From the IMG/VR virus record IMGVR_UViG_3300007722_000007, positions 10,451 to 74,450 of that record: a stretch of DNA of 64,000 bases, one strand, 5' to 3'. Origin of the DNA: a virus. This document shows positions 10,046-61,700 of the stretch, piece by piece. A program made the translations under genes and the position numbers. A model generated the notes under the pieces. That model did no database searches and had not been told where the DNA came from. It saw only the letters and a list, made by a program, of their open reading frames with translations. Every line of letters starts with the position of its first letter. Position 1 is the first letter of the stretch.

Positions 10046-10583
10046 TGCGTATCCTTTCGTAAACCACGTCTAATTGCTTCCAATCTACAGCCTTAAGTCC
10101 CTCTTTGTTGATGCTGGGCCAGCTGTAATTATTTACACCTAAGTGCGTTTGTGCCATTTCTTCCAGGATCCAGGCATCGCATCGGTCATCTCCACCTTTG
10201 CCACTCCAAATAATTCCCGTTCGCGCCGATACCGATGAAACCACTTCGGTCTTTGAAGCGTTCCCCCGTCCTGTGGCAAATTTCGCACGGCAGGTTGGCG
10301 GTATTTCTACAAATGGTATCCCGGCTCTAAATAGGCTTAATCTCACAACGCCGCCGAGCTCACCAATTGAAAAAGCCTGACCGCTTCGTGAAGCAAAAGA
10401 ATAGCCCTCAATCAGCGCAACGTCAATAGCGTTTAGGGAAATAATTTTAATAATTGATTCGGAGACTTCGTCTAGGCGCTCAACGCCATTCGTGCTGGGC
10501 GTTATAACTCCGGTAACCCCGGCGTGCGAATGACCCGTGGATCGTAATGATAAATCTAGGCCCAGCAACCTTATATTTCGCAT
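10035..10583 (-). CDS. ruvC: RuvC-like Holliday junction resolvase
   Basis: LGLDLSLRSTG, IEGY, GELGGVVR, KFATGRGNASK and DDRCDA motifs of the RuvC family. Confidence 0.85.
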   Translation of the reverse strand: MRNIRLLGLDLSLRSTGHSHAGVTGVITPSTNGVERLDEVSESIIKIISLNAIDVALIEGYSFASRSGQAFSIGELGGVVRLSLFRAGIPFVEIPPTCRAKFATGRGNASKTEVVSSVSARTGIIWSGKGGDDRCDAWILEEMAQTHLGVNNYSWPSINKEGLKAVDWKQLDVVYERIRSEE

Positions 10584-18757: not shown

Positions 18758-21700
18758 TTGTCTATTAAGGACCCCATGACTGACACGCTCTCCCCCATTC
18801 GCGATTACGAGTACAAGTCGTTAACCGGTCAATTCAATATAGATGAAGCGCTTGGGATCATTGAATGCTTCGTGGCGGGCATTGGCAATAAGGATTCCGT
18901 CGGGGATGTATGCCTTCCGGGCTGTTTTACGAACTCGCTAAAAAGAAGAAAGCCACGGGTTGTTTGGGGCCACAATTGGAACGAGCCCATTGGGAAGGTC
19001 CTTGAAATATACGAGGTCGGCCCAAACGATCCGCGGCTACCGACAAAAATGAAAAAGGCCGGCATTGGCGGACTTTATGCAAAGGTCCAATTTAATCTAA
19101 AAGCAGAAAAGGGACGCGAGGCATTTGCTAACGTCGGGTTTTTTGGGTTTGACCAAGAGTGGTCAATCGGCTACAAAACGTTAGATGCGGTATTTGATAG
19201 CACCCAGCAGGCCAACCTATTAAAAGAAGTAGAGCTGTACGAAGTCAGCCCTGTTCTCCATGGGGCGAATCAGTTGACAGGGACGATATCCATCAAGTCT
19301 GATGAGCCCGCCGCGGATCCTGCTAATAATTCAGCACTCGCCGGCCCCAATGGTGCTGAGATGAAAAACCAAGTAACTGCGATTTACGAAGCGGTTACCA
19401 ACCCTATTAATACCGTGGTTGGAAGAGCGGCGGATTTAACGCGGGCGCTGTCTGCGCACTTTGGCGGCCCCGTTCGCCTGGTTAGTGCCGACCACGATAT
19501 TGCCATCTTTGAAATGGGAGCCGGACAATCTACGGAAACGATGCGGGCCACATACCATTACGACGGTGATGAATTCATGTTTGGAACAGCGCAACAGGTG
19601 CGACCAGAAACAATTTATATTCCTATTCATTCTTCGCTGGGTAGCAGGGAAAATGGGGAAACAATCGCGCCCGGCATCACATTGGCGATGCTACCGGCAA
19701 TCGGCCAAAATATTCTGGATGTGCTGACATTCTCGGCCGATAAAAAGGATAGTTGCTGTGATGAGTGCGCTATCCACGGCGGCTCTTGCGGGGATTCAAA
19801 ATCGGCGATGACCCTGTCCGAGTTCAAATTAGCGAACCCTGGCACCCATGTAATTATTAGTCCAACCGATCCGGTGGAATCGGCGGATATTTTTGACACA
19901 GTTAGAACGGTTAGCGAATATCACGGCTTCTCAATAAAAATTTTGACCGAGGGGATTGTTGTTCAAAACTACGACACCCTGCAACCAGATGCCATAACCG
20001 CAATCACGACCGTACTCAGCGGCATTGAGGCAAAGGGGCTACGACCAAGTCTCAATAGACGGCGTACAAACATGAACCCGATGACGGCCCGCAACGCCGA
20101 CAATGATGAATTTGTCTTAGAGGGAATCCCGACAATTAATAGGGGTCGCGGGGTTATCGATCCAACGCCGGGGAGCGATGCAAATGTCCCCAATTTGAAC
20201 CGAAATCGTCGCGGGGCCGAAATGATGCCATCGGTGCCACAGCCGCGCGAGGTCCCCGAAGAAATTCCTGAAGTTGCGCCAGCGATACCGCGTAGGAAGC
20301 CAGACGAAGAACCCGAAAAAGTTCCAGAAAAAGTTCCAGAAAAAGAACCTCAAAAGGAACCAGGGCGTCCACCACCGATAACCGTTCCACCAGAACGCGA
20401 ACCATGGAAGACCCCGCCGCGCCCCGTGCCAAAACCGGAACCAGCGCCGACGCCGCCACCAAGACCAGTAACGCCTCCGATTCCAGAGCGACCAAGGGTC
20501 CCAGATGCACCACCAGTGCCAGTACGGCCACTAGTCCCTGTCGGCCGGGCAAGCACGGCTAATCCGAGCGGGAGCATGAGCTCTTCTCTTGAGAGCATAG
20601 ACACCGAGATGGATGCCATTAACCGACGATTAGCTACCGCCTCGCTAACTAACACCTTTGAAAATACGAACCGTTCAGCTCCGGAATTGATCCGGGACAG
20701 ACGAAGACTACAGCAGCTGATCCAGCAGCGGTACGCAATTGAGCGGAGTAGAGGAAACGATGCAAGCTCATTCACTGGGGAAAAACTGCCGGACGCTGTT
20801 TCCGCGCGCGGAAACATTGGCGGCTCTAGGCAGGCCCAAGCGGAATTGGCGAGAAATATATACCTAGCTCGCCAGCACGGTGGGATGTCTCTCGATCAAG
20901 CATCACACGAATTTGGAAAAACCAGAGAAGAAATTAGACAGTTGGAAGTACGCCACATAAGCTCGCTGCGGAATCTCGGCGAAACTCATCCAAATAGATT
21001 GTCGCGCAGAGCGCTGGACAATCCGTCCATCCCGCTTTCTAGCGATTCTATCGATTTGTTGAAGCGCAGACTTGATGGGGAGACACTCGACGAAGCAGCA
21101 CAGAGACTTGGGACTGACAGATATTCCGTTCGTAGATCAGAACAACTAGCCTTATCAAAATTGCGAAATTTTTTAGAATTAAATGACGATATAGATCTGC
21201 CAGTCGGAATGCAATTAGCAATTGACGCGCTGGCAATGGCGGAGGACGTCAGCGATTTAAAAGACGATAACGCCAATCAGGATTTAACGGATGCGGTACC
21301 CGATGTTGTATCGGGGAATTTTGGTACCGATGCCCCAACTGGGTCGATGGCGTCAATCTTGCGGATGTCATCAGATAATGACAATGAGCGGAGCGGGCCA
21401 GACGAAAAATTAAATAGACGCCTTTACGACAAATACGGCGATGACTCGATTGATAAACTTGCAAAAGATAACGATCTTTCCAAGAATGAAACTATTGCGC
21501 GAATTCGTGGCCATGCAATAAATCTCTCAGCATCCGAGAGCCCGCGACGCGCCGAGATGCGCTCCCTTGTAAATAGACACCGGGATTCTGTAACGGAATC
21601 CGATAGAAGAATATTAAAATTACGCCTCAACGGCGCATCCCTGGTCGACACAGCCGACGAAACCGGTTTATCGCGGGAGGAAGTACGGCAACGAGAACAA

Positions 21701-35800: not shown

Positions 35801-38123
35801 CGGCATCCGACAGGATCGCACGCGATGGGAACGTCCGGTTGGCCCTCGTGCGCCAGAATTGGTGCATATTGGCGCGTTGAACGAGAACCGAAAAAATAGG
35901 CGCAGGCGTGGTGCATCTAAAATCCGAGGAAGACGCGTGAACACTACGCCAAGTTTCGCATCAGTCGCCTCTCGGCGGAATTATGACAGTGCGCCCACCG
36001 GAAGTATGGCACTCGGCCCCGGCAATCCGCTTGCCAGAAGCACCGACAATGATTGGCTTGTAGATCTTGACGCATATAAAAGTTTAATGCTTAGAATTGA
36101 AGACAATATTGATCAAAAATTCAACGGCAGGCCGCGAACTATCGGCGACGTACTCGACAAACTTGCCACCGCCAAAGACGGTCTCGGCAAGCGAAATATT
36201 AATTTAGATCTCGTCCCGGCGTATTGGTTAATACCCGCAATGAGCGCCATGAAATCGGCCCTCGGAGGTCGCTATAGCGGAAACGACACCGTGGTTTCCC
36301 CAACCGAGCTCGGAGCGTATTATTCATTGATGCATCACCTAGATCAATACCCTGAAGCCTTTCAGGATATTAGTCTAATATTCTCTCCGTCAAGCATGCC
36401 CGACGCTCCGTCATTTGACGGACCAGTCGGCGCAACATCGGTTCGCCCGACATACGAAACGGCAGCAATGTCCGATGGGTCAAATTTCCGACCAGAATTT
36501 CACAGGATGCTGCCGGGCCTGAGGGAGGGGTTACCGTATCCGGATATGGAAAATTCCCCTGTCGTCTCCGAGTCCGGGGCGGGCGATTTAACCAAATGGG
36601 AGTCCACAATTCAGCCGCGACTGAGGCGTGGCGTGAAAACCGTCATTGTTCAAATACCAAGCACCACATCTGGCCACGGCAAATACCCATCGTTCCAGAA
36701 CATGAAAGATGGTAACTCGTTTGAAATACAGCTTGATCAAATCGGAGACCGAAACATCGGCGTTTTCATAGACGAAATGTACAGATTGCTAGAAAATAAT
36801 AGCGAGGGAGGCCAACTAATAGACAATGTCGGCTCCGTTGTTCTAACGCAACTTATCAAAGATGCTGCGGATAAATTTGACAATGCTATGCGTTCCGCAG
36901 AATCAAATCCGTCAATGAGGGGACAGATCGTTTCCGCCGCAACCGCACGGGCGGATGCCGACCTAGATGAAATAGCCCAGGCGGCTTCATTTTTAATTGC
37001 GACCCACGAGTTCGGACACGTTCTTGATTCGGTCGGAAACTGGAGACGCTCCCCGCTGGCAGCAAATCAACACAGTTCTCGTGGGCTAAATACCGTAGGG
37101 GAGTTCAGAAGAACAATCACTGAACTTTCGGCGATTGAGGACGGTCTTGATTCACCGCTCGCCAAACCATTGTATAATTCCCTAGCGTCGACATTTGTTT
37201 TTGAGCATGTCAATGACGCGCTAGCGTCACACTCCGCATTCAAGGAGATGACGGGAATCCTCCAACAAATGAGACAGCAATTGGATGAGTTTGGATCCGT
37301 GTTGTCCCTCTTTGATTCAATGGCCACGGACGCCAGAAATAACGGCGCTGACACCAGTGCCATGTTTGAGAATAGCGGACTTGCTTCTATTATGGGGCAA
37401 ACGCCGATGGACCTATTGGCAATTTTCAATTTATCCGTGTCATCTCAGGAGTCGGCGCTAGACCAAATGCGCCTCATGGACAGGGTCATGAGAAGCCAAT
37501 ATGATGTGGCCGCTGAAAGACTGCGTGAACTATATGAAAAAGTTACAGCACTAGTGCCGGTATATCATTGGATAAATAAACAGTCATTTGATGTGAATAA
37601 CATAGGGCGACAAATGACCGACATACGGACCACTAATCCAAATGCGATTGCTGAATTTATGCAAAATTTTGGTAATGACGTTTACGGAAAATCAGCGTGG
37701 TTTGATGATGACGGTCAGTTCAATGAGCGGAAATATATTATATCCGCGTTAAATAAAATGGCAGATCCTGATAATTATCACCGGATGCTCAGCCGTGTCA
37801 ATGACGGACTGATCATGCAGGGCAACAACGGTTGGAAAAACCTTGGCGATGACGACATAGAGGCACTCGTAAAATTGATCCCGTATCTGTCTACGTATGC
37901 AGGGCCCGCATTTTATCCAGACCAAATCGCAAACCCGGAAAATTATCCAGGATCCAACTCTGAGGCCTATGCTGAAATGCATCTCGCGCAAGTGCTAGCG
38001 GCAACTGGCACGCTTGACCATTTTGACGAAATAGAGCGAGCGCGTATTGAGAAAATATATAAACGCATGATTGATTGGGCGCGGAATTTAATAGAAGACG
38101 GGATGGTAGATAGTGGAAATTAA
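32877..38123 (+). CDS. Multi-module putative cargo protein with two HEXXH zincin metallopeptidase-like domains
   Basis: AAHEMEH (~34878) with later SNTTEMVAE; ATHEFGH (~37005) with later SEAYAE; each follows a GSM linker. Confidence 0.7.
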   Translation: MMPLTRKLLYKMGFPRSSIPLNAKIIASSDSKTIYQMPDGSRFLQNGITGELSDLTAFDTDILRTSTASIVDNSNMDWANKRIVDMAGKSLDDWWKTKSVSQSPKRQKPKTKPEEEYKYIPTTTFEAWASKWKPGDSLPLSPPGMSLNLCQHSGGGSPLESFRNPTVDEVLNRMWLPDERYVRVAEPRQGLSEKGILGAGLGMGRRNLLDFDLARRNLQTGFGIWRDGLNKLRCGPGSPAANRFTNIFGLGCDIPGGGDGPLDNIAAAIPNLNAPKPNAPGPKSPKTPKQAVETMREILGRTGNRVRPLRVSRTGEEVSGSMGADDGDARAVRILPRATMRQRMFDYAARLVRPVSRVTDRKKEWLKSNPDGRPFDASIALYHETLGRHGGNPNLMHAPVSILNTKTDVYGEVELFDPRTGTYRFMNQQDLIEGWDPDIAKWSTNNASDPKIAKQLREKLRNSMSLQSGDHPFSLREYDQIISNIGTILDGFSVAIERTAGENGSIPAMMLTGVSIGDVLGGGWSDTEMLRAQVRGMKPVERRGNAENMLNQLGIQTRWSQRDASPFLTADDLAAIWPAFQADARGRLGAGATDDEVDIGASKLWQDPDQRKKIMARADAPMAGQIVINPNALTDAALNRWRLTAGEHYLASGRPNNNSDLLHYTAAHEMEHLADFARKVQTLMGIDDTKWSDWVRGQRPINLDDAADGSIMRQAIDRLKTQWRSMAPATERISALLEFYMIFISTSGNSPRSAEQIMRDSGATKKQIAEMFERVNDAMERIGIIGEHDWWKKIYADAMPGDINSPNKSTGTQNASGHLVSEDDIGIMMDFLGSIYGQSNTTEMVAELGALLFQGGNGMKLIRDFVNGPENTDGISMAEFLDVIEAIFGKARMPSLDEGLSTGGLTYKSALPTTRQTKIQTAGGSTPYNYTNAKVLYFTKVTDIVSSKVLGRGLTGNRMRSGIVYDPNARDGDGDGIRQDRTRWERPVGPRAPELVHIGALNENRKNRRRRGASKIRGRRVNTTPSFASVASRRNYDSAPTGSMALGPGNPLARSTDNDWLVDLDAYKSLMLRIEDNIDQKFNGRPRTIGDVLDKLATAKDGLGKRNINLDLVPAYWLIPAMSAMKSALGGRYSGNDTVVSPTELGAYYSLMHHLDQYPEAFQDISLIFSPSSMPDAPSFDGPVGATSVRPTYETAAMSDGSNFRPEFHRMLPGLREGLPYPDMENSPVVSESGAGDLTKWESTIQPRLRRGVKTVIVQIPSTTSGHGKYPSFQNMKDGNSFEIQLDQIGDRNIGVFIDEMYRLLENNSEGGQLIDNVGSVVLTQLIKDAADKFDNAMRSAESNPSMRGQIVSAATARADADLDEIAQAASFLIATHEFGHVLDSVGNWRRSPLAANQHSSRGLNTVGEFRRTITELSAIEDGLDSPLAKPLYNSLASTFVFEHVNDALASHSAFKEMTGILQQMRQQLDEFGSVLSLFDSMATDARNNGADTSAMFENSGLASIMGQTPMDLLAIFNLSVSSQESALDQMRLMDRVMRSQYDVAAERLRELYEKVTALVPVYHWINKQSFDVNNIGRQMTDIRTTNPNAIAEFMQNFGNDVYGKSAWFDDDGQFNERKYIISALNKMADPDNYHRMLSRVNDGLIMQGNNGWKNLGDDDIEALVKLIPYLSTYAGPAFYPDQIANPENYPGSNSEAYAEMHLAQVLAATGTLDHFDEIERARIEKIYKRMIDWARNLIEDGMVDSGN

Positions 38124-45676: not shown

Positions 45677-46102
45677 ATGGATACGCAATCAATTGCTGAA
45701 CTTTTCAAAAAAGCAACGCTCCGCGCAGAGGCTTTATCAGACGACGATACGGCCGTACTCGACAATGCCACAAATGAAATTAAGGAAGATTATTACGCCT
45801 ATGACAATCTGGCCAAATATCCGCCATTCTCCTATAGAGCGCTGGGTGTAGGGCGACGCTACAGGGAGTTGCTCTTAGGCGAATTGGCTGCTTTCACACG
45901 CGGGATAAAGGAATATGATTCATTTGCCGCCATAGACGCCGAATACGAAATAGATATAGAGGAAGCCAATTCGTACCGTAAATTATACGACACCCCAGAG
46001 GCGGCGGCGATGAGCTATATGCGCCATATCGGCATTAAGCCATCAAAACAGGAACTTCAAGGATTCACAATTTGGGTCGGCGACGCAGAGATACCGCGAT
46101 GA
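45677..46102 (+). CDS. Small acidic hypothetical protein (candidate immunity partner)
   Basis: 141 aa, starting 9 nt after the putative toxin-ended gene. Confidence 0.55.
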   Translation: MDTQSIAELFKKATLRAEALSDDDTAVLDNATNEIKEDYYAYDNLAKYPPFSYRALGVGRRYRELLLGELAAFTRGIKEYDSFAAIDAEYEIDIEEANSYRKLYDTPEAAAMSYMRHIGIKPSKQELQGFTIWVGDAEIPR

Positions 46103-46641
46103 ATGACGGGAATCAAAAAAGACAGGCGTTAAAAATCGCCAGGTATATGGGGTGCTCCGGCGTCCACAAGGGCAACAAGGGTGAGTGGATGCCGTGCGCC
46201 GATCATGATACCCTACAGAGACTTTCGCAAGCCGCGGAGAGCGACTCATGGCTGAAAAAACAATCGGCAAAATCTGGGCAGTACGGTACCGCCGGAACCG
46301 TCCAAAAACGTAGTGCGAAAGGGGGAGGACGTAGCCCAACATCCGAAAATCAAATTGGCAAAATAGGGGGAACCAGGAAATATTTGGCCATAAAAAGAAA
46401 TAAGCCAATTGTGCTCCCCCGATCGGCGATAATTCAACGTCTTGGCAGTTTGGACAACGGTTCCCCACGAAGATCAAAACGCAAGGCGCGGGGTGCCAAA
46501 TGGGAGCGTTTAACCGAACGCGGGGTAATTGGCTTGTCGTCCCTGGACGGCGGCGGAATAGTTTCCGCGAGTGCACTTTCAAAAATGTTTAGCGTTTCTG
46601 ACGGCAAAAGAAAATACTTAAATCAATTCCCCACAGCGTAA
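46099..46641 (+). CDS. Basic protein with a DUF3721-like GCxGxH...WMPC motif
   Basis: ARYMGCSGVHKGNKGEWMPCADH; the ATGA overlap at 46099 fixes the likely start. Confidence 0.6.
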   Translation: MNDGNQKRQALKIARYMGCSGVHKGNKGEWMPCADHDTLQRLSQAAESDSWLKKQSAKSGQYGTAGTVQKRSAKGGGRSPTSENQIGKIGGTRKYLAIKRNKPIVLPRSAIIQRLGSLDNGSPRRSKRKARGAKWERLTERGVIGLSSLDGGGIVSASALSKMFSVSDGKRKYLNQFPTA

Positions 46642-46718: not shown

Positions 46719-49700
46719 ATGGCCGAAAATACAGACACTGGTGACTGCTGTCCCATCGCCCCAGATGATGGCGCCGACCAGATAAATCAAAAATCAGTAG
46801 GATTCGGGCCTCGCCGAGTTCGGTCCGACGGCCACGATGTCTTTGTCGATAAAGAGTCCGCCCGGGAAAGATCTCGCCAGCTCGGCTGCATCGGGATTCG
46901 TCAGTATAATTCTGTTTCTGGGGGATTTGTTTGGATGCCGTGCTCTAATGAATCAGATTACCGACGGGTAACCGGAGTGGGAGTTTTAGCCGGACGAAGA
47001 TCAGAGCGGGATTTGTCTAGACGTATTGCCAGAATACTAAAGAAAAAAACCGACGAAGTTAAGGCACTTGGTCCACCGATCGGCGGACCTCAACGGGATA
47101 TGAATCCAGCTACGGCGCGAAATGCCGATAATGACCCATTTGTCCTAGAGGGAATTCCAACGATAAATAGGGGTCGCGGCGTTATCGACCCGACCCCCGG
47201 CTCGGACGTCGCCATCCCCGCTCCGTCAACGCCTGACGCGCCAGAATTAAGCGATACCGCTAATCGAGCAAGCGATATTGATGGCCCCGATCTACCGACA
47301 CGCCCAGATCCGGGCGCTGCCCCTAGTGATAAACCGTCCATAGCGCGTTCTCCTAAAAAGCCATCAACGCGCCGAGCGTCAATCGCTCCGACAGACTCCC
47401 TGGCTCCCAAAATTGACACCGAACCCAGAAGGAACACAGCTAGAGATACTGTACCTGCCGCTACGGGAGCAATGCGTGGCGACAAGGTCACTCCGGCTAG
47501 ATTCATATTACCGGAGAATGACGAACTTGTTCGTCGCGTAAAAGGCGCAATTGCCAAATGGCTTGATGGAACCCCGGAGCGCGAACGCAGTAATTTGCTT
47601 CAGCGGAATGACAGAAGTGGGCGCAACAATTTCTTCGCCCAGATGTACCAAGACGACGCCGCGCGGTCGACGCTGCGGAGTTTCATATGGGGTGATATAG
47701 AAACCGCAGATGCGGCGGTTGCCTATTGGGGTGGCCAATTTGCGGATTCGGCAGACCGCGTCATCACCAAAATCGATACCGGGACGCTTAACGAGGCCGA
47801 CTACGTGGATGCTTTTAGGTTATACCAAAAAGCCGTCTCTCAGGCGCCTGATTTTTCACGGGGGATCATGGACACGTACGCAGTGGCTGATCCCGGAATT
47901 GACGAAGAAGTTTTATTTTCCAACCTGTCCGGATGGACGCTGCCAACAACGATTGAAAGCATGACCCCGAATACCACTCCACTTCAGTCATTTGGGGCTC
48001 AGGGGATTATAGCGATAACGGATATTTTTAGGGCGGCGGTTAGCCAATTAAAGTTTCCCGTGCAACGCGAAAATGCGCAAACCTTTCCGGAGGGGAATAA
48101 ACTTCGTGCCGGTTTTACCGCAAACCGCGCCGTCTACCCGCATGACTATGGAAATGTCTTATTGCGACGCCTGCTCGATGTATCAAATTCCGTCCGTAAC
48201 GCTAATAGCGAGCCAATACGCGAAACCATCCTTGGGTCGGCCCTGAATTCATTCGCAATGTATGTCGCGGCGCATGGCGTTCTGGTCCATGATTCAGATT
48301 TAATGGATAGCTCATTTGGAATAATGAACAATCTTCTTGAACAGTTACTAGCTGACAAAGAATCAACTGCCGTACTAGCAAAAATGGGACAATTATTTGA
48401 TTTGCTAGATACGCATCTTGTTGATTATACCGAAGCTAGAAGAAGAGCGCGCTTAGAAATAATTGCCGCTGCGAAAGAAAATGGATTATTGAGGAAAAGT
48501 GAGGACTTATTTGATAACGATGTGCCGCTTGCTGTCGCAGAGCATCTTGACAACTCAAAACAAGCATTTTCTACAAGAAATGAGCATGTCGCCGCGGTTA
48601 TAGCGCCGATTGGCGAAGATAAGTTGCGAAGAGTAATGCGGGACATTTTCGCGCGCAACAATTATTTAGACGGGAGCACGATAGAGAAATATTCCCCAGC
48701 TTCTCCCGGTGACGCCATAGCTCTCGCTTCCGAATTAAATCCCCCGCAAAGGGACAGGAATATTACCAGGCTCAGCACGGAAAACGCAAAAGCATTTGAA
48801 TCTATTACCTCATATCTCTATTCTGATAATCCAATATTTTTGGTCGACAACAACGACCAAATCCAACTATGGGCAAATTTATTGCAATACGGCAAACGCC
48901 GAATGTTACACCGCACCCTGAAACAAATGAGCCCCAAAAAACGCGCTGAGTTTATGGCCGTAGACCCTGAGACGGCCGATGTCCTTCTTGACTCGGCCAA
49001 GGAATCATGGCTATCCCACAGACAGATCAACGAGGGGTTCGGCCCCGACAATTATCCGCTTGATGACAATATCAACGCCACGCTGACAAACTATCCGATC
49101 GAGGATGTTCATTACAGAATCCCGCAGCGCATTACGGATAGCTCCTCTAATCCGCTTGTCCTGATAGCTAACGCCCTGCGCCTTCGCCAGTATCAGCTGG
49201 ACCGAGTCAACAATAACGATTATACAAATTCCATACGAGCCTTAATCGACGGCCTTCTCGGTGGCAATCCAAAACAATCAAACAAAATTTTTGATTTAAT
49301 GATTCTGCCATCGCCCGCCGCGCTTTTAATTGACCGCTACGCGAATAGCATCCCCAACTTTTTACACACGCTGGGAGAATATGATAACGACATTCAGGGC
49401 AACAATCGTGGTCAATTTAGAAATAATGATTCGGTATACCCCAATACAATGACGGCCCTTGGGGTTTTGGGGGACGCAAAACACGCACTTGCCGGGCTTG
49501 CCGGGAACATGGATGAATATGCCAATATGGCGTCACGGCGAATGGTGCTTATTACGGACGATTTAATTGATCGAGAAAATTACGACATTGATCCACTGGT
49601 TGAAAACTACCTAAACGCCGCCCCTTTTGGGTACGGTCCGAGTGGATCCATGGTCGGGCATATCGGCCAAAACTATCCCCGTGACAAAAGGGAATCTGGA

Positions 49701-52700
49701 TCCTGGAGCCCTGTGGCCGACAATATTAGGACGGAGATCGCGCGGGGGTATCAATTCCCGAAAAAAAGAAATGGATCCATGCGGATATCCCTGGGCTCGC
49801 GATACCGACAGGCGGAGCTTGTCCGGGAGGCGGCAGAACTACTAGACACGATGTACGAACGGGCGAGAAACGGAACGCTTAGATTGGAAGATTATGCGAC
49901 ATCGTATGATCAAAAAACCGAAAAATTAAAACTGGATGCCTTTAATCCCAAGACGCCAGCGTCCGTACTCAAAGGAGAAATGAGCCTATTCAGGGCCATC
50001 ACCCTGGTGATGACCGCCGCATCAGTTGGTGCCCGCACGCCAAAAGATAGAGATTTAATCGACGGCTTGACGCAGGAAGTTTATCAATGGGCCGACCACT
50101 TCCTCCCGTTCTATTCATCAAAACGGCCCTTTGTTGGGAGTCTTCCACGGAAAATTTCGTCAACGGACCCGACCGGCTCAATGGGCGGCATACGAAGTCC
50201 CAGAGAAAGATTTGCTAAGTTAAAAAATAGCAAATACGCCAGTCTTGAATTGCGCTGGGCCGCATTTGATGCCGCGGCAAGTGATCTAATTTACGAATCC
50301 GCCGCATCGGTACCGATATCCAATAAGCTACTGCAACTTGAAACCCTTCTTGACGACCTAATTAACGAGCAGTGGGCGCAGGCCAGCGGGCTCAAAACCG
50401 CACTTGAAATAATTTCAAGCCATGTCGACGACATGATCCAGGGCGGTCTTCCATTGCGCTTAACTGCGGAACTTACTAGATCATTTGATACCTTCGCCGG
50501 CCGCATGCGAAAAAAATACCAAGACGACCCGCTCCTAGCTTCTGCGTTTTCCAGTGTGAATCTATACTCGGTACGGAGCCGTAGTAAGCGTCGCAGGGGA
50601 CTTAAGCCGATAGAGCTACTTAATGAGCGCCTAACAATGCAGAATAGCCTATTGGATGATGCAATTACAAATAACCAGACCGCACGGGCCGAAAACTTGC
50701 GGGTGGCGATTAGCGTAACCGTCCGTAACATCAACGAAGTAACGCCTCCTCCCCGGGGGGCGCCGAAGAAGTTTGAATGGGAGGGCGACGATGAAACCCC
50801 CGTTTCTGGCTCCATGGCCGGTCGTTATTCACCACATCAGCTAACACTGTCCAATTTGGTCACGGGGTTACATGATTCGCCAGAGTTTGCCAAACATTGG
50901 CAAAGCATGGATGACAATAATGAATTATTTTGGAAGTATCGGTTGGAGTCGCAGCAGGAACCGGCAGGGCTTTCTAGTATTACGTTCAACTGGACCGACG
51001 AAGTGTCCAGAAACGCATATTTACGATTACTCACATCGGGCAAACAGTTTCCGCCGATATATCGCACTCCCGGCGGAAGAGATGGGGCTATTTTCCCGAA
51101 ATCATCGTTACATAAAAATTCAGAGATGGCAAAAAATATAAGTGAGTATATTGCCGATGAACTCGGAGTCGGAATGTACATACGGGGGAGGTATCCATAT
51201 TATGCTGACATGTTTAGCACCCTGGCTACATTTTCGCTTACTCCGTCTAGCGGTGTTGCTGGATCAAAGGCCGTAAGCGATATTCTGTCGTATCACTCCG
51301 AGGAACTGAATCCAACCCAGTTTGCATACAGGTTTGAAACCTGGATTCGGGATCCAGATATGGTTATGGAGAATGCAAAAACCGGCAAGGAAACCGGCGT
51401 GCGGAAATTTTTCAATAACGACCGCATCAAAATGATGATGGAATTCAACAAACGAATTGATGGGCTTTACGACATCATAGAAGAAAAGGCTCCGCAACAA
51501 ACGTTTGATAATTTCAGACCGCGAAGAATCCCCGGGCGGTACGACGGGGATATTTCGTCGTCATTAAAAACAACGGCATTGCAAACAATACTTTCAGCGA
51601 ATTTAGAAACTGACTCCGAAACGGTACATTCATTAACAAAACGAGTGAACGCGCAATTGAACCGATGGAATAATTTTGATTTCGCAACAGCCGAAGATAT
51701 TGTTAATATTTTGGCGGCAACCGAACCGAGCCTCTGGAATAAAATCAAAATCGACCTAGACGCACCGGTTAATCCGCTGAGCGGAATACCCATAGAAGAA
51801 CTCGATGCGAATAAAGATATTTTGTCGATCATTATGGACGACTATAAGAATTTGTCATTTTATGAAATAAAAGAACTATTAGCACAGGGATCCCACGCTG
51901 ATCTCTATGATGATGAAGCCATTCGCGCGTTGCTTTCGGAAATGGGCGTAACGGACCTTCAGGTTAGAGATACCGCAAACCCGTCTGGGTCAATGACACA
52001 GGGTGCGGGAAACGACGAGAGTTCAAATATTGACTGGTGGAAGATCCCCGATCCGGAAAAAATGGCGCTACTACGGCAAGACTTTGATCGGCTACATATT
52101 CTTAGGGCCAATAAGAAGGCACTTGAAATGTCGCCCGATGAAGAGCGCCAATTCAGGGTAACGCAATGGAAAAAATCTCAATTAGAGAAAATAATTGACG
52201 CCGACTGGGTCGCGCTCGGCCCATTCCCGAAAACAAATGCCCTAAGGGATTTACATAACCTTGCGCTGGAGGCCACCGATTCAGATGTAACCTTTTCGGG
52301 TAAAATTTATGGTTTTACCGATAGTCAAATATCCACAATATTTGATGAAATATCGTCTGGGCTCCCAAACTCGACCGATATTAAGCGACGTGGGGAATTT
52401 GTCGACCATATCAATGGTCGGCTATCCGTTCGTGGAGATGACGCACCAGCCATAGTGCCGGACATTTGGGCCCCGGAACCAACGCGGAATGAATTACTTG
52501 AGTTTACAACCCCCAAAGAGGCAGCCGAAATTCTCGGTGAAAATTTTGACTTTGACCGTGCGTTTTTGGCACAACTTTTGAACGGCCCATCATCGGAAAT
52601 GTCGCCCGAAATTAGGACGGAATTACTTCGGATAACCAATGATCGTGCCGACGGCGACGCTGATCCGGCCGCTGTCCAGTACGCTCCAACTCCGCAACAG

Positions 52701-55700
52701 CAAATGCAAAATTTCCTGATTAATAGTATAGACGAATCCGTTAATTCAGCCGAGGATTTTGTCGACAGTTTGTCACGGGAACAATTGTCTGTTATTTCCG
52801 ATCACGTAAGCTCTGGGCAGGGGCAACCTCGGACATTAAGTAGAGAGGATAACGAAGCCGAACGGACAGAGCAATTCAGACAGCAGTCCGCTTTGGGTAT
52901 TTCGCATTATTCCGCTACCCAAACTGGTAGAAACCAATTACGCACGATCGCATCTTTGATGAAGGAAAATACAAAAGTTCAGCTCGCCGATGATGTAATT
53001 GATAAAATCATTTTAAGTGCAAGCCAAGATGAGATCTCCTTTGACGCCGCGCTTCGGGCGTTATTCCCAATTGATAACTATAACGATATGGGTGCAATAT
53101 GGTTCCATGTAGTCAAACCGCTAACGGGTGTAGATAGCGACATCGCACGCGAACTGCAAGATGTTGCAAATGAGTCGACAGCACGAATGCGACGACACGC
53201 GTTCGTTTTGGCAATTCACGGGAATAAAGCCAAAAATGAACTTCGGCACACGCTCTATAATTTTGTCAAGAAGTACCCCGTTGACGGCGTCGGATCGGTT
53301 CGTATTGCTGGGTCAAACGAGACCACCAATGACATTGCCGATCTTTCGGCGGATGACCAAAATATAATTCGCTCGATTCAATTTGACACAATCAGTTCAT
53401 ACGATGGTACGACAGAATCCGCAAATCGGATAATAGGCGCGTTGACGTCTCAACAAATTGAACGACTATTTGAGAAATTCATTCTGCCGGCGCTTCATAA
53501 AAGTAATCCCGGCCTGGCCAATAAAAGGTCCATCAACCAAGCCAGAATAAAAATGCAAAAACAGCTCGCCAGGATCAATGCCGAGTTTTCCAAGTCACCC
53601 CACGGGGTGTCCACGTATACCAATGCCGATGGATATGGACCGGATGACATAACGGATCTAATTACGACTGCCGCCAATAGCGCCTTCGGAGATTTATTGC
53701 CAGATGGGACAAATGCCGACGACTTCGGAAACTATGTATCGCTCGTTGACTATTTTTTCAGTGGCGGTAGGGAAATTCTTCCAATCGGCGAGTATGCGGA
53801 GGCGGCGCGCAAATTGCAATACGCACAAACCCGGCTCGGCAAGAAACAAAGTGCAATCGCTGCTGATCGAGTGGAAATGACACAACTGGCAAACGATGCC
53901 GGGGCACAGCTGGATAGCGATGTCGCCAGCCTGCTAAAACAATTCATTAATCGTGATGACGATGACGCCGTATCACGGGCCTTGGATGAAGAAGAGTTTG
54001 CACGCCTCCAAGAACAAAAGCGCCGCCACAGATCAGAAATAAAAAAATACAATGTCCAACCGGCGGACAGTGAGTGGGAGGAAGCCGATGACGTATTTGA
54101 AATCGATAACGAAAATCCAAGCGGATCTATGTTGTCCGCACTGCCGAATGTTAGTCCGCGGTATATCGCTCTTCTTGATGCAAAGCGGACACCGCGTAAA
54201 AAGCATGACGATGAAGCGCGTTCCCAGTTTAGTATAGCCGAAAAACGCGCAATAGAAATTGTGCGCAATAACGGAATTGATATCCCAAATGACTATACGG
54301 GAATTGACAGCCAGACTTTTGATGGAACTGCAATGAATTTATTTTCAAATGCGGGCGCTGTCACCGCGTCAGATATAGAAAAACGTCTAATTTCTATACA
54401 GAAAGCTATCAATATAGAACTTGAAAAAATAATCGTGTCGGAGTTTCCGCACTCCGAGTTTAGGGCTGACTCAAGAGGATTAATGCTCTATGTCCCGGCG
54501 CGTCTTCTTGCGGACGGCCCCGAGGCGCCTGATGCCATCGCCGAATTTGAACCATACGACGCTAATACCGATGATGATTTATCGCTGCGCCCACAAAATT
54601 TTGATATCCGCACCCACCCAACAGCCGTCGCTCTGCGCGACCGTCACGATAATTTTACTGGGGCGAAGCATTCTTTTGGCTCGGAGTGGCTACACGAAAA
54701 TACCCGATACGGGACAGAAACGAATAAGCTCTTACAGCTACTTGAATCAGACCCGTCATCATTGGATATGGACAAGATCCTGGCGTATGTTGAATCACAG
54801 GGCGACTGGATGGACATAGAAACCCTGCCGTTGTCATCTGGATTAGTAACCGAATCGCCGATAGGACGCACTACCGGTTTCGGGGCGGAACGTAGAAGTC
54901 GTCTTATCGATACGGCCCGCTTAGAAAAAGAGAAGAAAATTGTTCGCTCAAAAGCCCTATCCAGTAAGGCCCTTCGGGATTCCTGGTGGCCTCTGTTCAC
55001 CGGACCAGACACGCTTGATGAAATAGAAATTGCGCAGACCTCTGGCTACCTGGAAGAAGCGGTCATTGCCGGCCTGAAAACCGTCGCTCGTGAAAATGGT
55101 CAAATTGATAATTTTGACAGAATGCTTTCTCGCGCACGCCAAGCCGGCAGGGACAGGGCACAAGAACTCGCTCGCTCATTTGCGCTCGCAAAAATTGTTG
55201 AAATAATAGACTCAAACGAGTCTATAGCGGGTCAGCTTTTTCATATCGACTCGCTTATACAGGATGCCGAATTATCCAAAGACGTCACATCAAAACAGTA
55301 TCAGGCGCGAATACGGGCAGAAATACTAAAACGTGTGAGCTCTCAACGGACGCTACTTAATACACGTAAACAACTTGAGCGCTACGATGCGATCACAACC
55401 ACTCCGCGTGATTATTTGTATAATCTACAAAAGTGGGATGCAAATTACGGCCCGATACTTTTGCAACTTGAAGCCGGGATCCAAGATCTCAGCATCCAGG
55501 CAGAGGCGAGTCTTCGGGCTCTCCGTGGCTATGATGAAACAGTTTCGGAACTTCAGGAACGAGTTAAGGAAATACGGGAATTAGCAGATAACGCAGCCGA
55601 ATTTATTCGGATTAGGGCTCTTCAGAGAGCGACCGATGATGCGCTACAGGCACTAAGCGATGACCCTAACAACATTATGGGCGATGGATCGTCGCCATCT

Positions 55701-58700
55701 GGGTCGATGAAGCGGGTCGGGAGACATCCGACCACTGGAGTCGCAATTTACGCTCAGGGCGTTCAGGCACAAGAAGCCGAGCGACGGGATGCACGCGTGC
55801 TGATGACGCCTGCCGAAAAAGAGTTTTCGCAGCATGTGCTCCGCCAGCTGAATGCATTAAAGGGCCTTGATCTGACGGACATAAATGCCAGCTCCAAGAT
55901 TGCGCGACAGTCGGCGCTTGGCGCTTTGGTATCAGGGAATATACAAGTTTCAAGAATTGCACAATCCGTCCTTGGGCTACAACGGACAGCCCGCTCCATA
56001 AGAAGTAGGTTTTCTAGAAATTTAGTATCTAATCTGCGATCGGGGCCAGATGCAACAATTTCAGACGCTGTAAGAAATTCAATTCTTTTAGAGCGAAGCC
56101 GCCTCCACGCAAATGAATTAACGCCCGACTACGCCGTATTCTCTGAATTGGCGGAATCCATTCTTCCGGCGGTGTCCGCAACAATTCTTTCCGACCTACG
56201 AAATATTGGCCGAGATAAAACAATTTTAAAACATGGGATATTTGATAGAGGCGTATCCCTGATAGAGCACGAGCGATCAGAAATTATGAACTCAATCCGT
56301 GACGAATCAAAAACCTCACCGATGTCCACTATCGCCGAGCGCTTAAACTTGGACCTGAATTTACTACGGCGGGCGCTAGACGCAGATTTGCAGTCACGGA
56401 AACTTGCAATTTTAATTACCGGGGCGCAAGAAATGGCCTACATCCTAAAAGATGGCTATACAAAAAATGCAGCCGCGGGAATAATATCTGAAAAAATACC
56501 AGAGCTTGGGGAACTTGGCATTACGATTGAGGCAATACTGGATACGCCAGAACATATTGCACTAGCATCCCTGGATAATATAGAACTGGCATTAAGACAC
56601 ATCGCAAAATCCAACGCCAATACGCTTTATGTATCCGATCAGATAGAACGGGCTGCCCGTAGTGCCGGCATTCCAACTTCGTCAATAAATTCACTACGTA
56701 AATTTTCTGCCGAAATTGAACAGACGAAGCGGTATGGCGGCCTAAGATTTGATGCACTAACTCCAGATGATTGGAGATTTATGACCTATGGGGAGCAACT
56801 TGATTGGCTCGATTCGGATATGGGCAAAACCGCCATACCGGAAGAAATGCGTCAATTCCAGAAACTCCAATTAAATGAAATGGCAGAGGCTTACGGCTCC
56901 CTTGATGGGCCCTATGGCGCAACGGCTTCGGCTCTCCGTCGCTCAAATATATCCGAAGCTATTTTTGGGATGAATTCGGTTACCCCGACCGGAGAAAGTC
57001 CGATATTCTCATGGGTCGGCTTGAAGGATTCAGACCTCGTACGAAGCGGTAAATTTCCCACAAAATCGATCTTTGAAAAATATGGGTCTTTGGGGATTCT
57101 GAATGATGTTGCGCTCGCGGCATTTTTTAATACACAACCAGGTGTAATCAAGAAACTTCGGTCTGGTAAATTCGGATTATCAACCGCGGCGGCCTCGCGT
57201 GTGGCCAATGCGCTTGGCGTTCAATTAAACGACATCTGGTCCAAAAATAAAAAGATTGACAAGATAAAAGCCCCAAATGGGCATTTTTTGTGGATCGCCG
57301 GTAACTGGTCGGTTATCCAAAAACTTCTTGAAATGAGTGATGCGCACCGAAGCGATGCCGCAATTGAAAAAACACTTGGGAAACGTGCCGTGCTACAGCT
57401 AGCACAACTTAAAAAATTACAAAAAAATAAAACAATGGACGCCTTTGGTAGGGCCGTGGGCAAAACGAATCCATCAGATAGCGAAGTTCGCAAATACTTG
57501 CTGTCCGTAATGCCAACTTCCAAAAAAGATGCCGTGCTGGCCTTGGCCCAATCAGGCTACGGAGAACAGGACATTATCGGCGTAACCGGGTTTAATGCAA
57601 ATACGGTAAGGAACATATTGCACGACCTTAGGCGGGCCGGAATCGCCCCCGACGCCGTAGGAAAGAAAATTTGGATAATGGCCAACGCCGACAAGGTTAT
57701 TGCCGACATGGCCGGCGGTATGTCAAAACGACAGGCGATGAGAAAGTATGGAGTCGGAGCAGAAACAATACGCTCGATATTAACGGAATCCAATGCGCCA
57801 ATAGACTATCAGAATGCCTCAGATTTGATTTCGGGAGATAGTCCGAGTGGTTCAATGGCAAATAGAAGAGTGGGTGAAGATGTTGAACAGGTAGCCGGCC
57901 CGACCCCGGCTTGGGACTCGGACGATCCGAGCGTTCGCGTATTTCTTCCAGAATTTCCCCCGACCGTTGTCGCGGAACCGTATAGCCCAGAAACCGGCCC
58001 GGCATCCGCTCGTCTCCGCGCAAACGGCGCCGCAAAAGACCAGGATGCATTAAATCGCTGGAGGCCGTCTATGGCCAAAATGTTGAATTGGGTCATGAAC
58101 GGTGGGGTTTTAGAAAACCATGATGATGCGCAGAATCTCATCGACGATGACGAGTTTGATCTAGACGCCACCTCCGCGGTGGACGAGCCAAACTTTTCAA
58201 TTACGATGCCGGATGAAGTTGCTATCGGCGAAGCAATTGACGGAATGAAGCTTAGCGTCGACCAAATGGATGAGTATGGCGCTTTCCCCGGCATCGGGCG
58301 TGCCATGAATAATCTTTTTGAACAAGCCATTTTGTCACTATGGCGGTTGGAAAATCAACCTCGGGGCGCATATGACGGAGCCGACATGGATGGCGATTTT
58401 AGGGACATGCTTGAGCCGGACGAAGATATTGATGATACCGATGGGCCGGGGATGTCATTTAGCGACTTTGTAAGTATGGTTGTTAATTCCCTGGATCCGC
58501 GCCCAGTTTTGATAACCGGATCGGACGCAGACTGGTTGAACGAATTCGCGCGATCGTATGCGGCGTCAAGAAACACACTTGATGAATCAACAGCCGAAAA
58601 CGCAGACAGACTATATAACTTATTTATCCGCAAGTTAAACTCATCCAAAGATTCTAAGCAGTGGATGCAAAAAGCGAGATTTATGGTTTCCATTCAGAGC

Positions 58701-61700
58701 ATGGCGAACCATGTAATTGATAAATTCGCCCTGGCGAGTTTCAATGCGTCTATGAATTTTGATAATCCAGGCGTTGTCGACGACCAGGTAGCTGCGCATT
58801 TCTTTGACAGGGTACTCAAGTCCATATACGATTTGCCTGGGGCTGATTTGGACTTCGTTGACAGGGTGATAGGAAAAGCAAACGATGAGAGAAACGCGAC
58901 CATGATAGATAGACCCTGGGCGGACGAAGATGATGATATAGACGATCACGCCCCGATTACGCTGTCCGCGTCAGCCCGCGAACAATTTAATGACGCCGCA
59001 AACGGCATAGCGTCGACGGTTGCACAATTATTTTCAGACCAACTGGCGTATCATATTGGTACTAATTCCAGTTCCGATCCAATGGTTGGAATCTTTCCGC
59101 GAAAAGACTGGACTGGTCAATGGACAATTTATGGACCAGATATTGTGTACGCCGGTTATGGCGCCAAAAAACCTTATAACAGGTCGGTTAGGTGGAGCGC
59201 CGATCCTAGCCTAAATGCCGGAATTGTAAACTTTGACGAAGACTTAAGTGGTTCGCCGGATAAGTATCTGTGGGAGGTGCGTTTTGACGCGGACGGTGAG
59301 TATGGTGTTTCGGCCCTTGAATTGATGCAAATGGACGCATCGGATGAATTCGGTGCATTTATTTCGCATATTGCAAGAAACAGGGATGCCAATGAAATCG
59401 GTTCAATTGCAAAAATCATTAATGACCTGATTCAGCCGACCAAAATGCTCCATATCCCAGAAGGCATGACGGCAGCGCTACGTGACCTTTCGGAAATGAT
59501 GCAATACGAGATTGAAACCCGAGATGACTTCCCCGGAATATCATCCGGGAATACGGCAAACAGAATGTTCCCGTGGATCGACTGGAATAAAACCCACGAT
59601 CTGTATCCGGTACTTAACATGGATGACATTATTACGGGCGAGCAACGAAGTTGGCCATGGGTTGCCAAAAGAGCGGTTATAAATCAGAATTTGCGCCGGG
59701 TGCGCGAATATAACAAAATGCAATACGGCATCGTTATGGAGATGACGCAAGATCTACATCAGGCTGAGGACTTAATTGAAATGTATAGTGGTTTAATTGC
59801 CGCACTGAAATCCAATGCGGAATTTGCCGAAGATGAGGAAATGCTCGGCCGAATTGCGGATGCCGAAAGACAGCTCGCTAGACAGCAGGATTTCAAGGAG
59901 GCACTAGAGCCGGTCATCGGTCCTACGATTGAGCAATTGGTGAAATTTACCGCCGGACGGCTGGAATCGCTTGATTCGGTTATTTCCGTCGGCGAGATGT
60001 TGAGAAAAATTGCGATATTCGACCGCGAGCATGACGCCAGGGTGGAACGTAAAAATTTACTTGGGAAATATAAGCGAACAGTCCTTGATGTCGCCCAACT
60101 CGACCGAGTGACAAACGACGGCGCCACATCAAATAAGGATGACGTTTATATTCCGACATTTAATGAATGGCTCGGAAGCAATGGTTACGAATACCTAACT
60201 TACGAATACAAACATGATGAGATACCGCCAAGCGATGCCGTCAGCGGATCAATGGCCCTCCATAGGTATACAAAGCCGGGCCTATTGGCCATTGTTCATG
60301 GTCACGAAGAGGCGAAGAAATCTGATCACAACGAAGTAAGTGTCCCGCACCTCCTATTGGGCCTCGCACGAGAAAATATCGGCAAGCGGGCGTACAACCA
60401 GACCATAGCTGGGCGCGTTCTAAAGAGGCTGAATGTAGACATTAATAAATTGCGCACCGCAATTAATGAGATCATTGCACCGGGGGCCCCCGACGGTAAC
60501 AAGGAGAACAGAATTGTTCCAATTAGCGCAAACGCTCGGACCGTAATGGTTAGGGCAGTAAAACAGGCGATGAATAAGGGGCAGAATTTTGTTGGTACCG
60601 ATCACTTACTGTTGGCGATAGCAAGTGCCAATGATAAATATGACGACTCATTGTCCGGGGTGTTAAGCGAGTTGGGCATTACAAAAGAGCAGCTTATCGC
60701 TGAAACGATCGCGGCGACTGAGGCATTCAATATGGGTTCCTTCCCTAACGAAGCCGGTCCGTCAGGCTCAATGCAGTTTTACCCCAGGCAGACAGATGAT
60801 CAAAGGGAACGTGCGCGTGCATTTATGATAAAGGCGGCGGGAGATGAGTGGTTTACTGTCGACAGGGTTATTGAAATTGTTCTTAATATAGCGACAGACA
60901 AACAACAGGTTGACGAATTTGAAAGACTGCTTGACGAATACGTAGTTAAGATTTCCAGTAAGCAAATTAGCGCCAACGATTATAGGAATGGGATGTCTCC
61001 TTTCTCGGTAAACGCAATTCTCCAAACGAACTCCGCATTGATATTCGGAGATATTGGGCAAGAACCAACTGACTTAGTCGGCGCAATCGCTTACCGCATG
61101 AATGTTATTGACGTACTCACCGGGATTGATGCGACACAGGCCGCGCGCTATGCCACAATAAGACAACAGGCCAAACTATTTTTTGATACCGATTCCCACG
61201 CCCAAATATTTGATGGCGAAAAGGATGCTCCGAGTGGCTCAATGGACGGCGCCGGCAGTTTTGGCCTAGTCTACGAACCGATTGGTAAAATGTTCGTTTC
61301 TCGGCCGCAGATGCCGCAGGACGAATATTACCAGTCGATTTATGGGCCCGCGCTGGAATCCGAGTCAGAGCTTAGAAAAGCCGCGGCTGCCGTCAACCTA
61401 TCAAGTCCACTTAATCTAGATTTGAACTTAACATATGGCGATGATGACGATGTTACCTGGTCTTCAAACGCCTGGTCAATTGCGAAAACAAGTTTCATAG
61501 AAGGATCAGACGCAGTCATCATGCGTATGCAGGGAAATGACATCACCACCGCCCAATTGCTGATGATTGACAGAAAATCCGGTCCGTTTACAAACGCCAA
61601 GGCATTAGTGGGCGGACTTCGTGACGGGGACGAAGACTACATGACCACGGCAACACGAGAGGGCCTAGAGGAAGTCGGTATCGATCTAAATAACTCGATA

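Follow-up and report, generated by a model that had tools for sequence, protein, structure and literature searches.

The stretch of viral DNA considered here, referred to as the window, covers 64,000 nucleotides (positions 10,451 to 74,450 of the IMG/VR virus record IMGVR_UViG_3300007722_000007), and coordinates are window positions unless stated otherwise. It contains a giant open reading frame (ORF) that is divided by short linkers into 13 modules, and the tenth module is a Clp_N double repeat. The segment is a true ClpC-type N-terminal domain (NTD) comprising two four-helix repeats without an ATPase, and its possible release from the polyprotein, delivery into the host, and action on host proteolysis are discussed here. 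The features that define the module are the following.

46719..63032, plus strand: giant polyprotein ORF of 5,437 amino acids (aa), with 13 modules, 11 [PV][ST]GSM linkers, and one RNGSM variant
60237..60254, plus strand: upstream linker A-V-S-G-S-M, whose Met is module residue 1; relatives carry their own linker type at the equivalent joint
60252..60770, plus strand: Clp_N double-repeat module, from the linker Met through the last residue ahead of the next linker Met (Pfam, AlphaFold2 [AF2], Foldseek)
60303..60476, plus strand: Clp_N repeat 1, a six-frame Pfam match of 44.6 bits (record positions 70753-70926) containing HLLLGL, with Pro32 in place of the glutamate of the first phosphoarginine (pArg) pocket, pArg1
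60555..60710, plus strand: Clp_N repeat 2, a six-frame Pfam match of 24.8 bits (record positions 71005-71160) containing GTDHLLLAI, with the Thr116-Asp117 pair and the D131-D132 loop
60732..60773, plus strand: disordered C-terminal tail and downstream linker (…SFPNEAGPSGS-M), from the predicted local distance difference test (pLDDT) scores of AF2 and linker mapping

The module comprises the 173 aa encoded by 60252-60770, i.e., residues 4512-4684 of the translated ORF, which are exactly those quoted in a preliminary description of the window that proposed a stand-alone Clp_N double repeat bounded by two linkers and serving as an injected decoy. The hidden Markov model search suggested there was carried out, and the Pfam Clp_N family (PF02861) matches the module in two stretches (E = 8.2e-20; 71.2 bits against a cutoff of 20.7), with each of the two six-frame repeat matches individually exceeding the cutoff. 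Both linkers are present, AVSGS/M upstream and GPSGS/M at the end, although the module is stand-alone only in the sense of being delimited, as it is part of the polyprotein ORF and not a separate gene. The absence of an AAA+ domain was also borne out: none is found by Pfam in the giant ORF, and no AAA_2 domain is found in any of the five related phage records examined. Downstream of the module are a 157-aa module, a NUDIX domain, and a Zeta_toxin domain rather than the AAA+ modules and M-domain, and the ORF therefore does not encode a full-length ClpC. Searches of NCBIfam and PADLOC added nothing for the module; the NCBIfam models of ClpA, ClpB, and ClpV gave matches far below cutoff and confined to the N-terminal 130 positions of the models.

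In a phmmer search against all PDB chains, the top matches are only ClpC-type N-domains (E of about 1e-12), including those of Mycobacterium tuberculosis (Mtb) ClpC1, Bacillus subtilis ClpC, Staphylococcus aureus ClpC, and plant ClpC1, followed by ClpC2 (E of about 3e-10). Module residue 4 is aligned with residue 3 of Mtb ClpC1 and residue 4 of B. subtilis ClpC; hence, the module begins within one residue of the start of ClpC itself, as the preliminary description had anticipated for the linker Met. The AF2 model, for which the input alignment comprised 9 phage modules and 15 cellular Clp_N proteins, has a mean pLDDT of 90.5 and a predicted template modeling (TM) score of 0.86 and consists of eight helices in two groups of four. 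Foldseek superposes it on the ClpC1 and ClpC NTDs with TM scores of 0.84-0.91, root mean square deviations of 2.1-2.4 Å, and a probability of 1.00, and the lower-ranked matches are the ClpC2 C-domains (TM of about 0.72), plant ClpT2 (4y0c), and the N-domains of ClpB and Hsp104. The C-terminal end of the model is disordered, with pLDDT values below 50 at residues 165-171 and averages of 57 and 49 in the final two 10-residue blocks, and this predicted disordered tail is the next linker. Among the modules of the ORF, the Clp_N module is the cleanest for a model of linker cleavage because both of its ends match the known ends of a well-defined fold.

Family and conservation of the module

A search with the C-terminal four modules of the ORF recovered 20 further giants of 4,036-5,551 aa, encoded on contigs of up to 155 kb and colinear with this ORF. 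Precomputed Clp_N, NUDIX, and Zeta_toxin matches are carried by most of the giants, and BLAST places the Clp_N module equivalently in all 21 family members. One member, P0003, is a full-length colinear homolog with 33.6% identity over 5,343 aa, and in comparison with it the three best-conserved modules are NUDIX (63.6%), Zeta (57.1%), and Clp_N (51.5%), the other modules being 29-43% identical. The ratio of nonsynonymous to synonymous substitution rates (dN/dS) of the Clp_N module ranges from 0.09 to 0.26, with 0.09 in a clade-B pair and approximately 0.24 in clade-D pairs; these values are rough because dS is high, but they place the module under purifying selection.

A quick maximum-likelihood tree, left unrooted, places the 21 phage modules in a single group (support of 100 in the Shimodaira-Hasegawa-like approximate likelihood ratio test) separate from the 70 most similar cellular Clp_N domains, which is consistent with a single acquisition followed by descent within the giant gene. 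An exhaustive representative search found nothing outside the family closer than 37% identity. A word-based search at near length returned no free-standing close relative of the module, which is not proof of absence. Searches of viral contigs with the module alone, or with NUDIX and Zeta alone, found no related loci; an alignment-based query did find loci. The preliminary description had looked to phylogeny for a hint at the host, but neither donor nor host was revealed, as the Mtb, Bacillus, and plant ClpC NTDs score approximately equally and thus point to no particular donor. In the complete genome G001, the IMG/VR record behind L005, the Clp_N module is the sole Clp_N copy. With a protease polyprotein of 3,190 aa, a giant ORF of 5,347 aa, and whiB present in four copies, this genome (173,962 bp, with direct terminal repeats and an estimated completeness of 100%) is the best reference genome for the group.

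The modules that follow the Clp_N module are listed below.

60771..61241, plus strand: module 11, 157 aa, between Clp_N and NUDIX, strongly conserved
61242..62177, plus strand: module 12, NUDIX hydrolase with ADP-ribose-type relatives (Pfam NUDIX, E = 6.5e-8; 63.6% identical to P0003)
62178..63032, plus strand: module 13, Zeta-toxin-like P-loop kinase (GGSSGTGKT) followed by the stop codon (Pfam Zeta_toxin, E = 6.9e-20; 57.1% identical to P0003)

Module 11 is the constant companion of the Clp_N-NUDIX-Zeta set and exceeds the Clp_N module in conservation. It has no match among the Pfam, NCBIfam, and PADLOC families, although 25 positions are invariant among nine relatives, with motifs including WFN.DR, D[FY]R.G.SPF, TNS, and GQEP.DLVGAI; its AF2 model, built as a check for a Clp adaptor, is poor (pLDDT of 60). 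Module 12 additionally gives weak NCBIfam matches to NtrR and NadM-Nudix. More distant metagenomic giants (P0171-P0177; 3,280-6,091 aa) share NUDIX and/or Zeta without Clp_N and carry DnaJ, ADP-ribosyltransferase (PF03496), UvrD-type helicase, and exonuclease domains in its place, suggesting that the cargo set can be swapped between phage lineages.

Linkers, candidate proteases, and predicted packaging

The tripeptide GSM occurs 12 times in the giant ORF against an expectation of 0.67, with 11 copies in the form [PV][ST]GSM and one as RNGSM. Over the six frames of the window, the in-frame motif [PVI][ST]GSM has 24 copies in four co-oriented ORFs of the head module, i.e., nine in 18758-27034, two in 29008-32781, two in 32877-38123, and 11 in 46719-63032, whereas only three copies lie elsewhere. 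The Ser and Gly codons differ among the copies, implicating selection on the peptide rather than on the DNA. In P0003, the same joints are written GP[VI]G[KNR]M, and the linkers of two further clades are GP[VT]ASMSSxTR and EAGMSxxTR. The complete relative G001 has nine P-x-G-x-M sites in its protease-headed polyprotein (3,190 aa), seven of which are GP[VI]GxM, and this type matches that of its giant protein; in the distant relative G004, the protease polyprotein has 11 G[SA]M sites (nine exactly DSGAM) and the giant protein has seven (five exactly DSGAM). A linker that is uniform within one phage, differs between phages, ends in Met, and lies in predicted disorder resembles the site of a co-evolving phage protease. 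At the level of sequence, the linkers behave like such sites, and cleavage at them is predicted. The RNGSM joint is not conserved in P0003 and hence may not be a real site; it closes a 43-aa mini-module (49650-49778) that begins after a PSGSM linker. The possibility that translation starts internally at the linker Met was also weighed and rejected, as the Ser-Gly-Ser codons vary freely and Shine-Dalgarno-like spacing is lacking.

The features of the head module that bear on cleavage and packaging are as follows.

18857..19288, plus strand: Peptidase_S78 prohead serine protease domain (Pfam PF04586, 41.1 bits; phrog_80), N-terminal in the 2,758-aa polyprotein ORF 18758-27034
47061..47213, plus strand: shared tag of approximately 50 aa (…DMNPATARNADNDPFVLEGIPTINRGRGVIDPTP…), a candidate capsid-targeting signal at aa 115-165 of the giant ORF (BLASTP)
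63372..63998, plus strand: start of the major head protein gene, which extends past the window; 70% identical to L005:13105-14427, itself a phrog_10 major head protein (E = 1.5e-63)

The S78 prohead protease is the first candidate for the linker-cutting enzyme. The second is provided by the zincin modules of ORF 32877-38123 (1,748 aa), in which two HExxH motifs, HEMEH at aa 668 and HEFGH at aa 1377, each lie in a linker-delimited part. A cut just before the invariant Met would give each freed module an ordinary Met start and would thereby avoid N-degron recognition. Alternatively, the linkers would serve as flexible spacers or be recognized by a factor that is not a protease, and the Clp_N domain would be part of one huge cytoplasmic or internal head protein that is neither processed nor injected. 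Some polyvalent proteins, including the virion RNA polymerase of N4, are indeed packaged uncut (PMC5512222). However, the linker varies by phage and yet is uniform across all polyproteins within a phage, including the protease-headed one; cut sites would also account for the invariant Met and the disordered tails, and purifying selection on a ClpC-type fold is hard to reconcile with a filler; an uncut, uninjected protein is accordingly considered improbable.

The gene order is portal, S78-protease polyprotein, several large cargo ORFs, giant ORF, and major head protein. The tag of the giant ORF is 84% identical to aa 30-80 of ORF 29008-32781 by BLASTP; a 46-aa stretch is 72% identical between ORF 29008-32781 and aa 426-471 of ORF 18758-27034, and the giant ORF is 41% identical to the same region of ORF 18758-27034 over 138 aa. 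The three proteins that share the tag are unrelated outside this region, and the tag is nearly invariant in the 21-member family, which is compatible with a capsid-targeting signal. Targeting propeptides and the motif-specific processing of ejection proteins by prohead proteases are established in T4 and SPN3US (PMC10052503), and packaging and injection have been predicted for the "polyvalent" proteins, which are of giant size, combine several domains, and have genes that adjoin those of the virion (PMC5512222). In this context, the shared tag, the fusion of a protease to one polyprotein, and the covariation of the linkers suggest that the giant protein is virion cargo that would be packaged and delivered.

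Two further observations concern the same gene cluster. The portal protein (16473-18692) has a C-terminal MuF-like head-morphogenesis domain (phrog_2468, aa 492-736), and this arrangement resembles the "portal and MuF-like fusion protein" of Streptomyces phage Gilgamesh. Furthermore, a module of the protease-headed polyprotein is a bare Sigma70 region-4 domain (21587-21724; aa 944-989 of ORF 18758-27034; Pfam, 49.1 bits), another fragment of a host machine as candidate cargo.

Host, functional sites, and possible modes of action

The portal and tail sheath proteins are closest, at 33-44% identity, to those of Gordonia, Brevibacterium, Arthrobacter, and Streptomyces phages. Two to four whiB genes are present in each of four related records, whereas among 14 control genomes whiB was seen only in Corynebacterium; no whiB was found in the examined part of the record of this phage, which is approximately 50% complete. 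The whiB gene is an accepted marker of actinophages (PMC6802176). The phage is an uncultured myovirus whose host is very probably a member of Actinomycetota; a cyanobacterial host, prompted by the DUF3721 domains described below, was rejected in favor of Actinomycetota on the portal, sheath, and whiB evidence. To our knowledge, ClpC1 is universal in Actinomycetota, and an actinobacterial host would thus be ClpC1-bearing. A search for a Clp partner encoded by the phage found no ClpP or Clp ATPase (AAA_2) in the phage records examined; any Clp partner must therefore be that of the host. ClpC1 is an essential protein of actinobacteria and, in mycobacteria, has been validated as a drug target; adaptors, marked substrates, and natural antibiotics all converge on its N-domain.

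We infer every step of the following mechanism. The polyprotein would enter the procapsid via the shared N-terminal tag, the phage protease would cut it at the P-[ST]-G-S-M linkers, and the freed 19-kDa Clp_N domain would be ejected with the DNA. In the cell, the module may act as an ATPase-less mimic of the ClpC1 head that binds groove ligands, i.e., adaptors and unfolded or degron-bearing substrates, and in the clade of this phage it may also bind phosphoarginine at a putatively retained second pocket; such ligands would be withheld from ClpC1P1P2. The pay-off may be protection of co-ejected and transiently unfolded cargo or the sparing of labile host proteins, antitoxins for example, from Clp-dependent degradation, although a benefit of the module against host defenses is speculation. 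The logic of competition is documented for actinobacterial ClpC2, an ATPase-less homolog of the ClpC1 NTD that acts as a sponge and in excess slows the degradation of casein by ClpC1P (PMC10030653), and SPO1 Gp53 demonstrates that phages do target the ClpC NTD (PMC6873191). The decoy interpretation is plausible; that the module, once freed, packaged, and ejected, does compete with the ClpC1 NTD for groove ligands is a tentative proposal with somewhat less than an even chance of being correct.

The functional sites of ClpC (PMC12583610; PMC13345244) were mapped through the phmmer alignment to all 21 modules. R5 and T7 are invariant. The predicted ligand groove is hydrophobic in 21 of 21 modules at the equivalents of Mtb F2 and F80, with Leu, Met, or Ile at position 3 and Phe, Leu, Tyr, Trp, or Ile at position 91. 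The position of K85, which together with R9 and R122 anchors the resting state of ClpC (PMC12583610), is basic in 13 of the 21. A loop containing D131-D132 is invariant and specific to the phage family, and the repeat-1 loop of the module described here carries an insertion of seven residues relative to the ClpC NTDs. The domain thus appears to retain the ligand groove and the N-terminal motif and to have given up classical double-pArg recognition and the contacts that tether the NTD to the ring, as described below.

A conserved hydrophobic groove would also suit a holdase role, in which the module binds exposed hydrophobic or unfolded stretches of the cargo, before packaging or after ejection, and shields them from ClpC1P. 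Precedents exist in the NTD grooves of ClpB and Hsp104, which accommodate unfolded proteins (PMC12583610), and in the protection of casein against ClpC1P by ClpC2 (PMC10030653). Furthermore, the module is always encoded with the same partner modules in a late-operon gene, and its stoichiometry would be matched to the cargo because both are made from the same polypeptide. Nevertheless, this self-protection overlaps with the decoy proposal and is inseparable from it by sequence, the client is only hypothetical, and the cargo polyproteins P0171-P0177 manage without Clp_N; a role of this kind is regarded as unlikely.

Several observations weigh against competition by an injected decoy. The pArg1 glutamate (E32) is replaced in 21 of 21 modules by Pro, Gly, Ala, or Ser (Pro in this phage), with T7 kept. 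The Thr-Glu/Asp pair of the second pocket (pArg2) is kept in only seven of the 21, those of clades A and B, which include this phage, and the remaining 14 have Gly. The two anchors to the M-domain are never basic: the R9 equivalent is Pro in this clade and Asp or Glu in others, and the R122 equivalent is Gly in this phage and Glu, Asp, Gln, Asn, or Ser elsewhere (acidic in 14 of 21). The conserved function of the family therefore cannot be the classical capture of pArg or the NTD-like docking on the M-domain. The most serious objection concerns copy number, as a virion can deliver only a few to tens of molecules, which would make a poor stoichiometric sponge unless the host cell is tiny or the target is rare. 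If the hosts are very small planktonic actinobacteria, ten molecules would come close to micromolar, based on an estimate of cell volume. Moreover, because the gene lies in a late operon, the producing cell would also be rich in uncleaved polyprotein, and the domain might exert its effect there rather than in a newly infected cell. The protease and the side of the Met on which it cuts stand at the level of candidates, and cleavage, packaging, ejection, and binding are all predictions for an uncultured phage whose record is only about half complete. On the sites, the evidence for the decoy idea of the preliminary description is accordingly mixed: the groove, R5, and T7 favor it, whereas the loss of pArg1, the loss of pArg2 in most members, and the replacement of R9 and R122 do not.

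The residues of the second pocket (T81, T105, and E106) correspond to S92, T116, and D117 in this phage and to Ser, Thr, and Glu in clade B. In these members, the pocket might take pArg-bearing proteins or free pArg and thereby blunt a pArg signal for stress or degradation. Mycobacterial ClpC2 keeps one of two pockets and still binds pArg with a dissociation constant of approximately 5 μM (PMC13345244). However, the pocket is lost in 14 of 21 modules, with Gly at the position of the glutamate, and pArg binding is thus not the conserved function; furthermore, both the equivalence of Asp to Glu and an arginine kinase in the host are assumed. A pArg binder is considered very improbable.

The exchanged anchor residues bear on two further possibilities. 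The module lacks the residues that ClpC uses to dock its NTD on the M-domain, which makes competition for ligands more likely than insertion of the module into the ClpC ring. Alternatively, the module is a recruiter or activator that docks on ClpC1, ClpP1P2, or ClpS and redirects or deregulates proteolysis, similar to SPO1 Gp53 or plant ClpT1/T2. Plant ClpT1 and ClpT2 are free Clp_N proteins that bind the ClpP core. The D131-D132 loop and the acidic replacements of R9 and R122 would, judging from the alignment, form a new acidic surface with which another partner might interact, and Foldseek also recovers ClpT2 (4y0c) and ClpC2. NTD-directed modulation of ClpCP by a phage is documented (PMC6873191), and ClpC is released from its resting state and activated when ligands bind the NTD (PMC12583610). 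By contrast, the contact is purely conjectural, the ClpC NTD residues that touch AAA1 and the M-domain are mostly lost, and the ClpT-type matches score below the ClpC NTDs; recruitment or activation is decidedly unlikely.

If competition by the injected module is correct, host proteolysis would join the processes attacked by pre-made phage proteins carried in the virion. The phage copy would then reveal which NTD surfaces matter for competition, with the groove, R5, and T7 kept and the M-domain anchors discarded, and would provide a new probe for ClpC1 ligands. A more general proposition is that, in aquatic actinophages, the tag and a co-evolving small-Gly-x-Met cut site make giant ORFs into approximately a dozen injected effectors, a system not described before, including a ClpC1-head mimic that arrives at the onset of infection, blinds ClpC1P1P2 to adaptors or substrates, and so protects unfolded cargo or blocks protease-triggered defenses such as the activation of toxin-antitoxin systems. 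It would be the first example of a host AAA+ protease inhibited, by a protein delivered in the virion, through mimicry of its own substrate-docking domain; in this general form, the proposition is doubtful.

Known systems and neighboring features

The module is most similar to the NTDs of ClpC and ClpC1 (Mtb 3wdc and 8b9u; B. subtilis 2y1r and 5hbn), with which it shares the fold, the double repeat, the start residue, R-[FY]-T, HLLLG, the groove, and a basic residue at the K85 position. It differs from them in being only 22-27% identical, in lacking AAA+ domains, in lying inside a polyprotein, and in the changes of E32 to Pro, R9 to Pro, and R122 to Gly, the DD(G/S) loop, and the seven-residue insertion. 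Actinobacterial ClpC2 (8ad9, 8b9o, and 9p2p) is likewise a Clp_N double repeat without an ATPase that belongs to an actinobacterial Clp system; it retains one pArg pocket, as the residues predict for the phage module, and is documented as a cyclomarin sponge and a pArg-responsive repressor with the logic of a competitor (PMC10030653; PMC13345244). ClpC2 is, however, a cellular gene product with an N-terminal DNA-binding part, a C-terminal dimerization helix, and regulation of its own promoter, whereas the phage module is a bare domain that is structurally nearer to the ClpC1 NTD (TM of 0.88) than to ClpC2 (TM of 0.72); the module is not a ClpC2 ortholog.

Among phage systems, the polyvalent proteins (Iyer, Burroughs, Anand, de Souza, and Aravind, 2017; PMC5512222) are similar in being giant multi-effector proteins encoded beside virion genes, with NUDIX and peptidase modules in the locus. 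The giant ORF shares this architecture, as Clp_N, NUDIX, and Zeta_toxin are combined in one 5,437-aa protein in a context that runs from the portal and protease to the head protein; it differs in the phage-specific linkers that end in Met and in the fusion of an S78 protease to one polyprotein. Term searches of PMC5512222 did not find Clp, "zeta toxin," or the linker and protease-fusion architecture. SPO1 Gp53 is also directed to the NTD interface of ClpC (PMC6873191), but it is an adaptor mimic encoded by an early gene, whereas the phage module mimics the NTD and is encoded late, and the two are not homologous. The free-standing Clp_N genes of Mycobacterium phages Myrna (gp251) and Phabba are actinobacteriophage Clp_N proteins without an ATPase, with 31% identity over approximately 120 residues; gp251, however, has a gene of its own (235 aa) in a neighborhood of small non-structural genes and is not bounded by linkers within a head polyprotein. 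Phage members are also included in an atlas cluster of Clp_N-only proteins of approximately 167 aa. The internal proteins and Alt of T4 and the ejection proteins of phiKZ and SPN3US combine a targeting sequence, motif-specific cleavage by a prohead protease, and delivery with the DNA (PMC10052503), although these are separate genes that each lose a propeptide at an x-x-Glu motif, whereas approximately a dozen products per frame, released at small-Gly-x-Met sites, are predicted here. Thus, Clp_N-only proteins (ClpC2 and plant ClpT), free phage Clp_N genes, polyvalent proteins, and an adaptor-mimicking phage modulator of ClpC were already known, and what is new is that a mimic of the ClpC head forms a module, bounded by linkers, within a head polyprotein that is predicted to be processed by a protease.

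Two DUF3721 occurrences lie around the start of the giant ORF, one in a 189-aa ORF directly upstream (46072-46641; 32.9 bits, above cutoff) and one at the extreme N-terminus of the giant ORF itself (46851-46952; 22.6 bits, below cutoff); the Cys-rich, DUF3721-like N-terminal region is kept in the family consensus. Elsewhere in the window, on the minus strand (7765-9713), a PAPS-reductase-like gene (phrog_2302, E = 1e-72) is immediately followed by a ParB-like nuclease/partition gene (phrog_723), a recurrent pair in phages.

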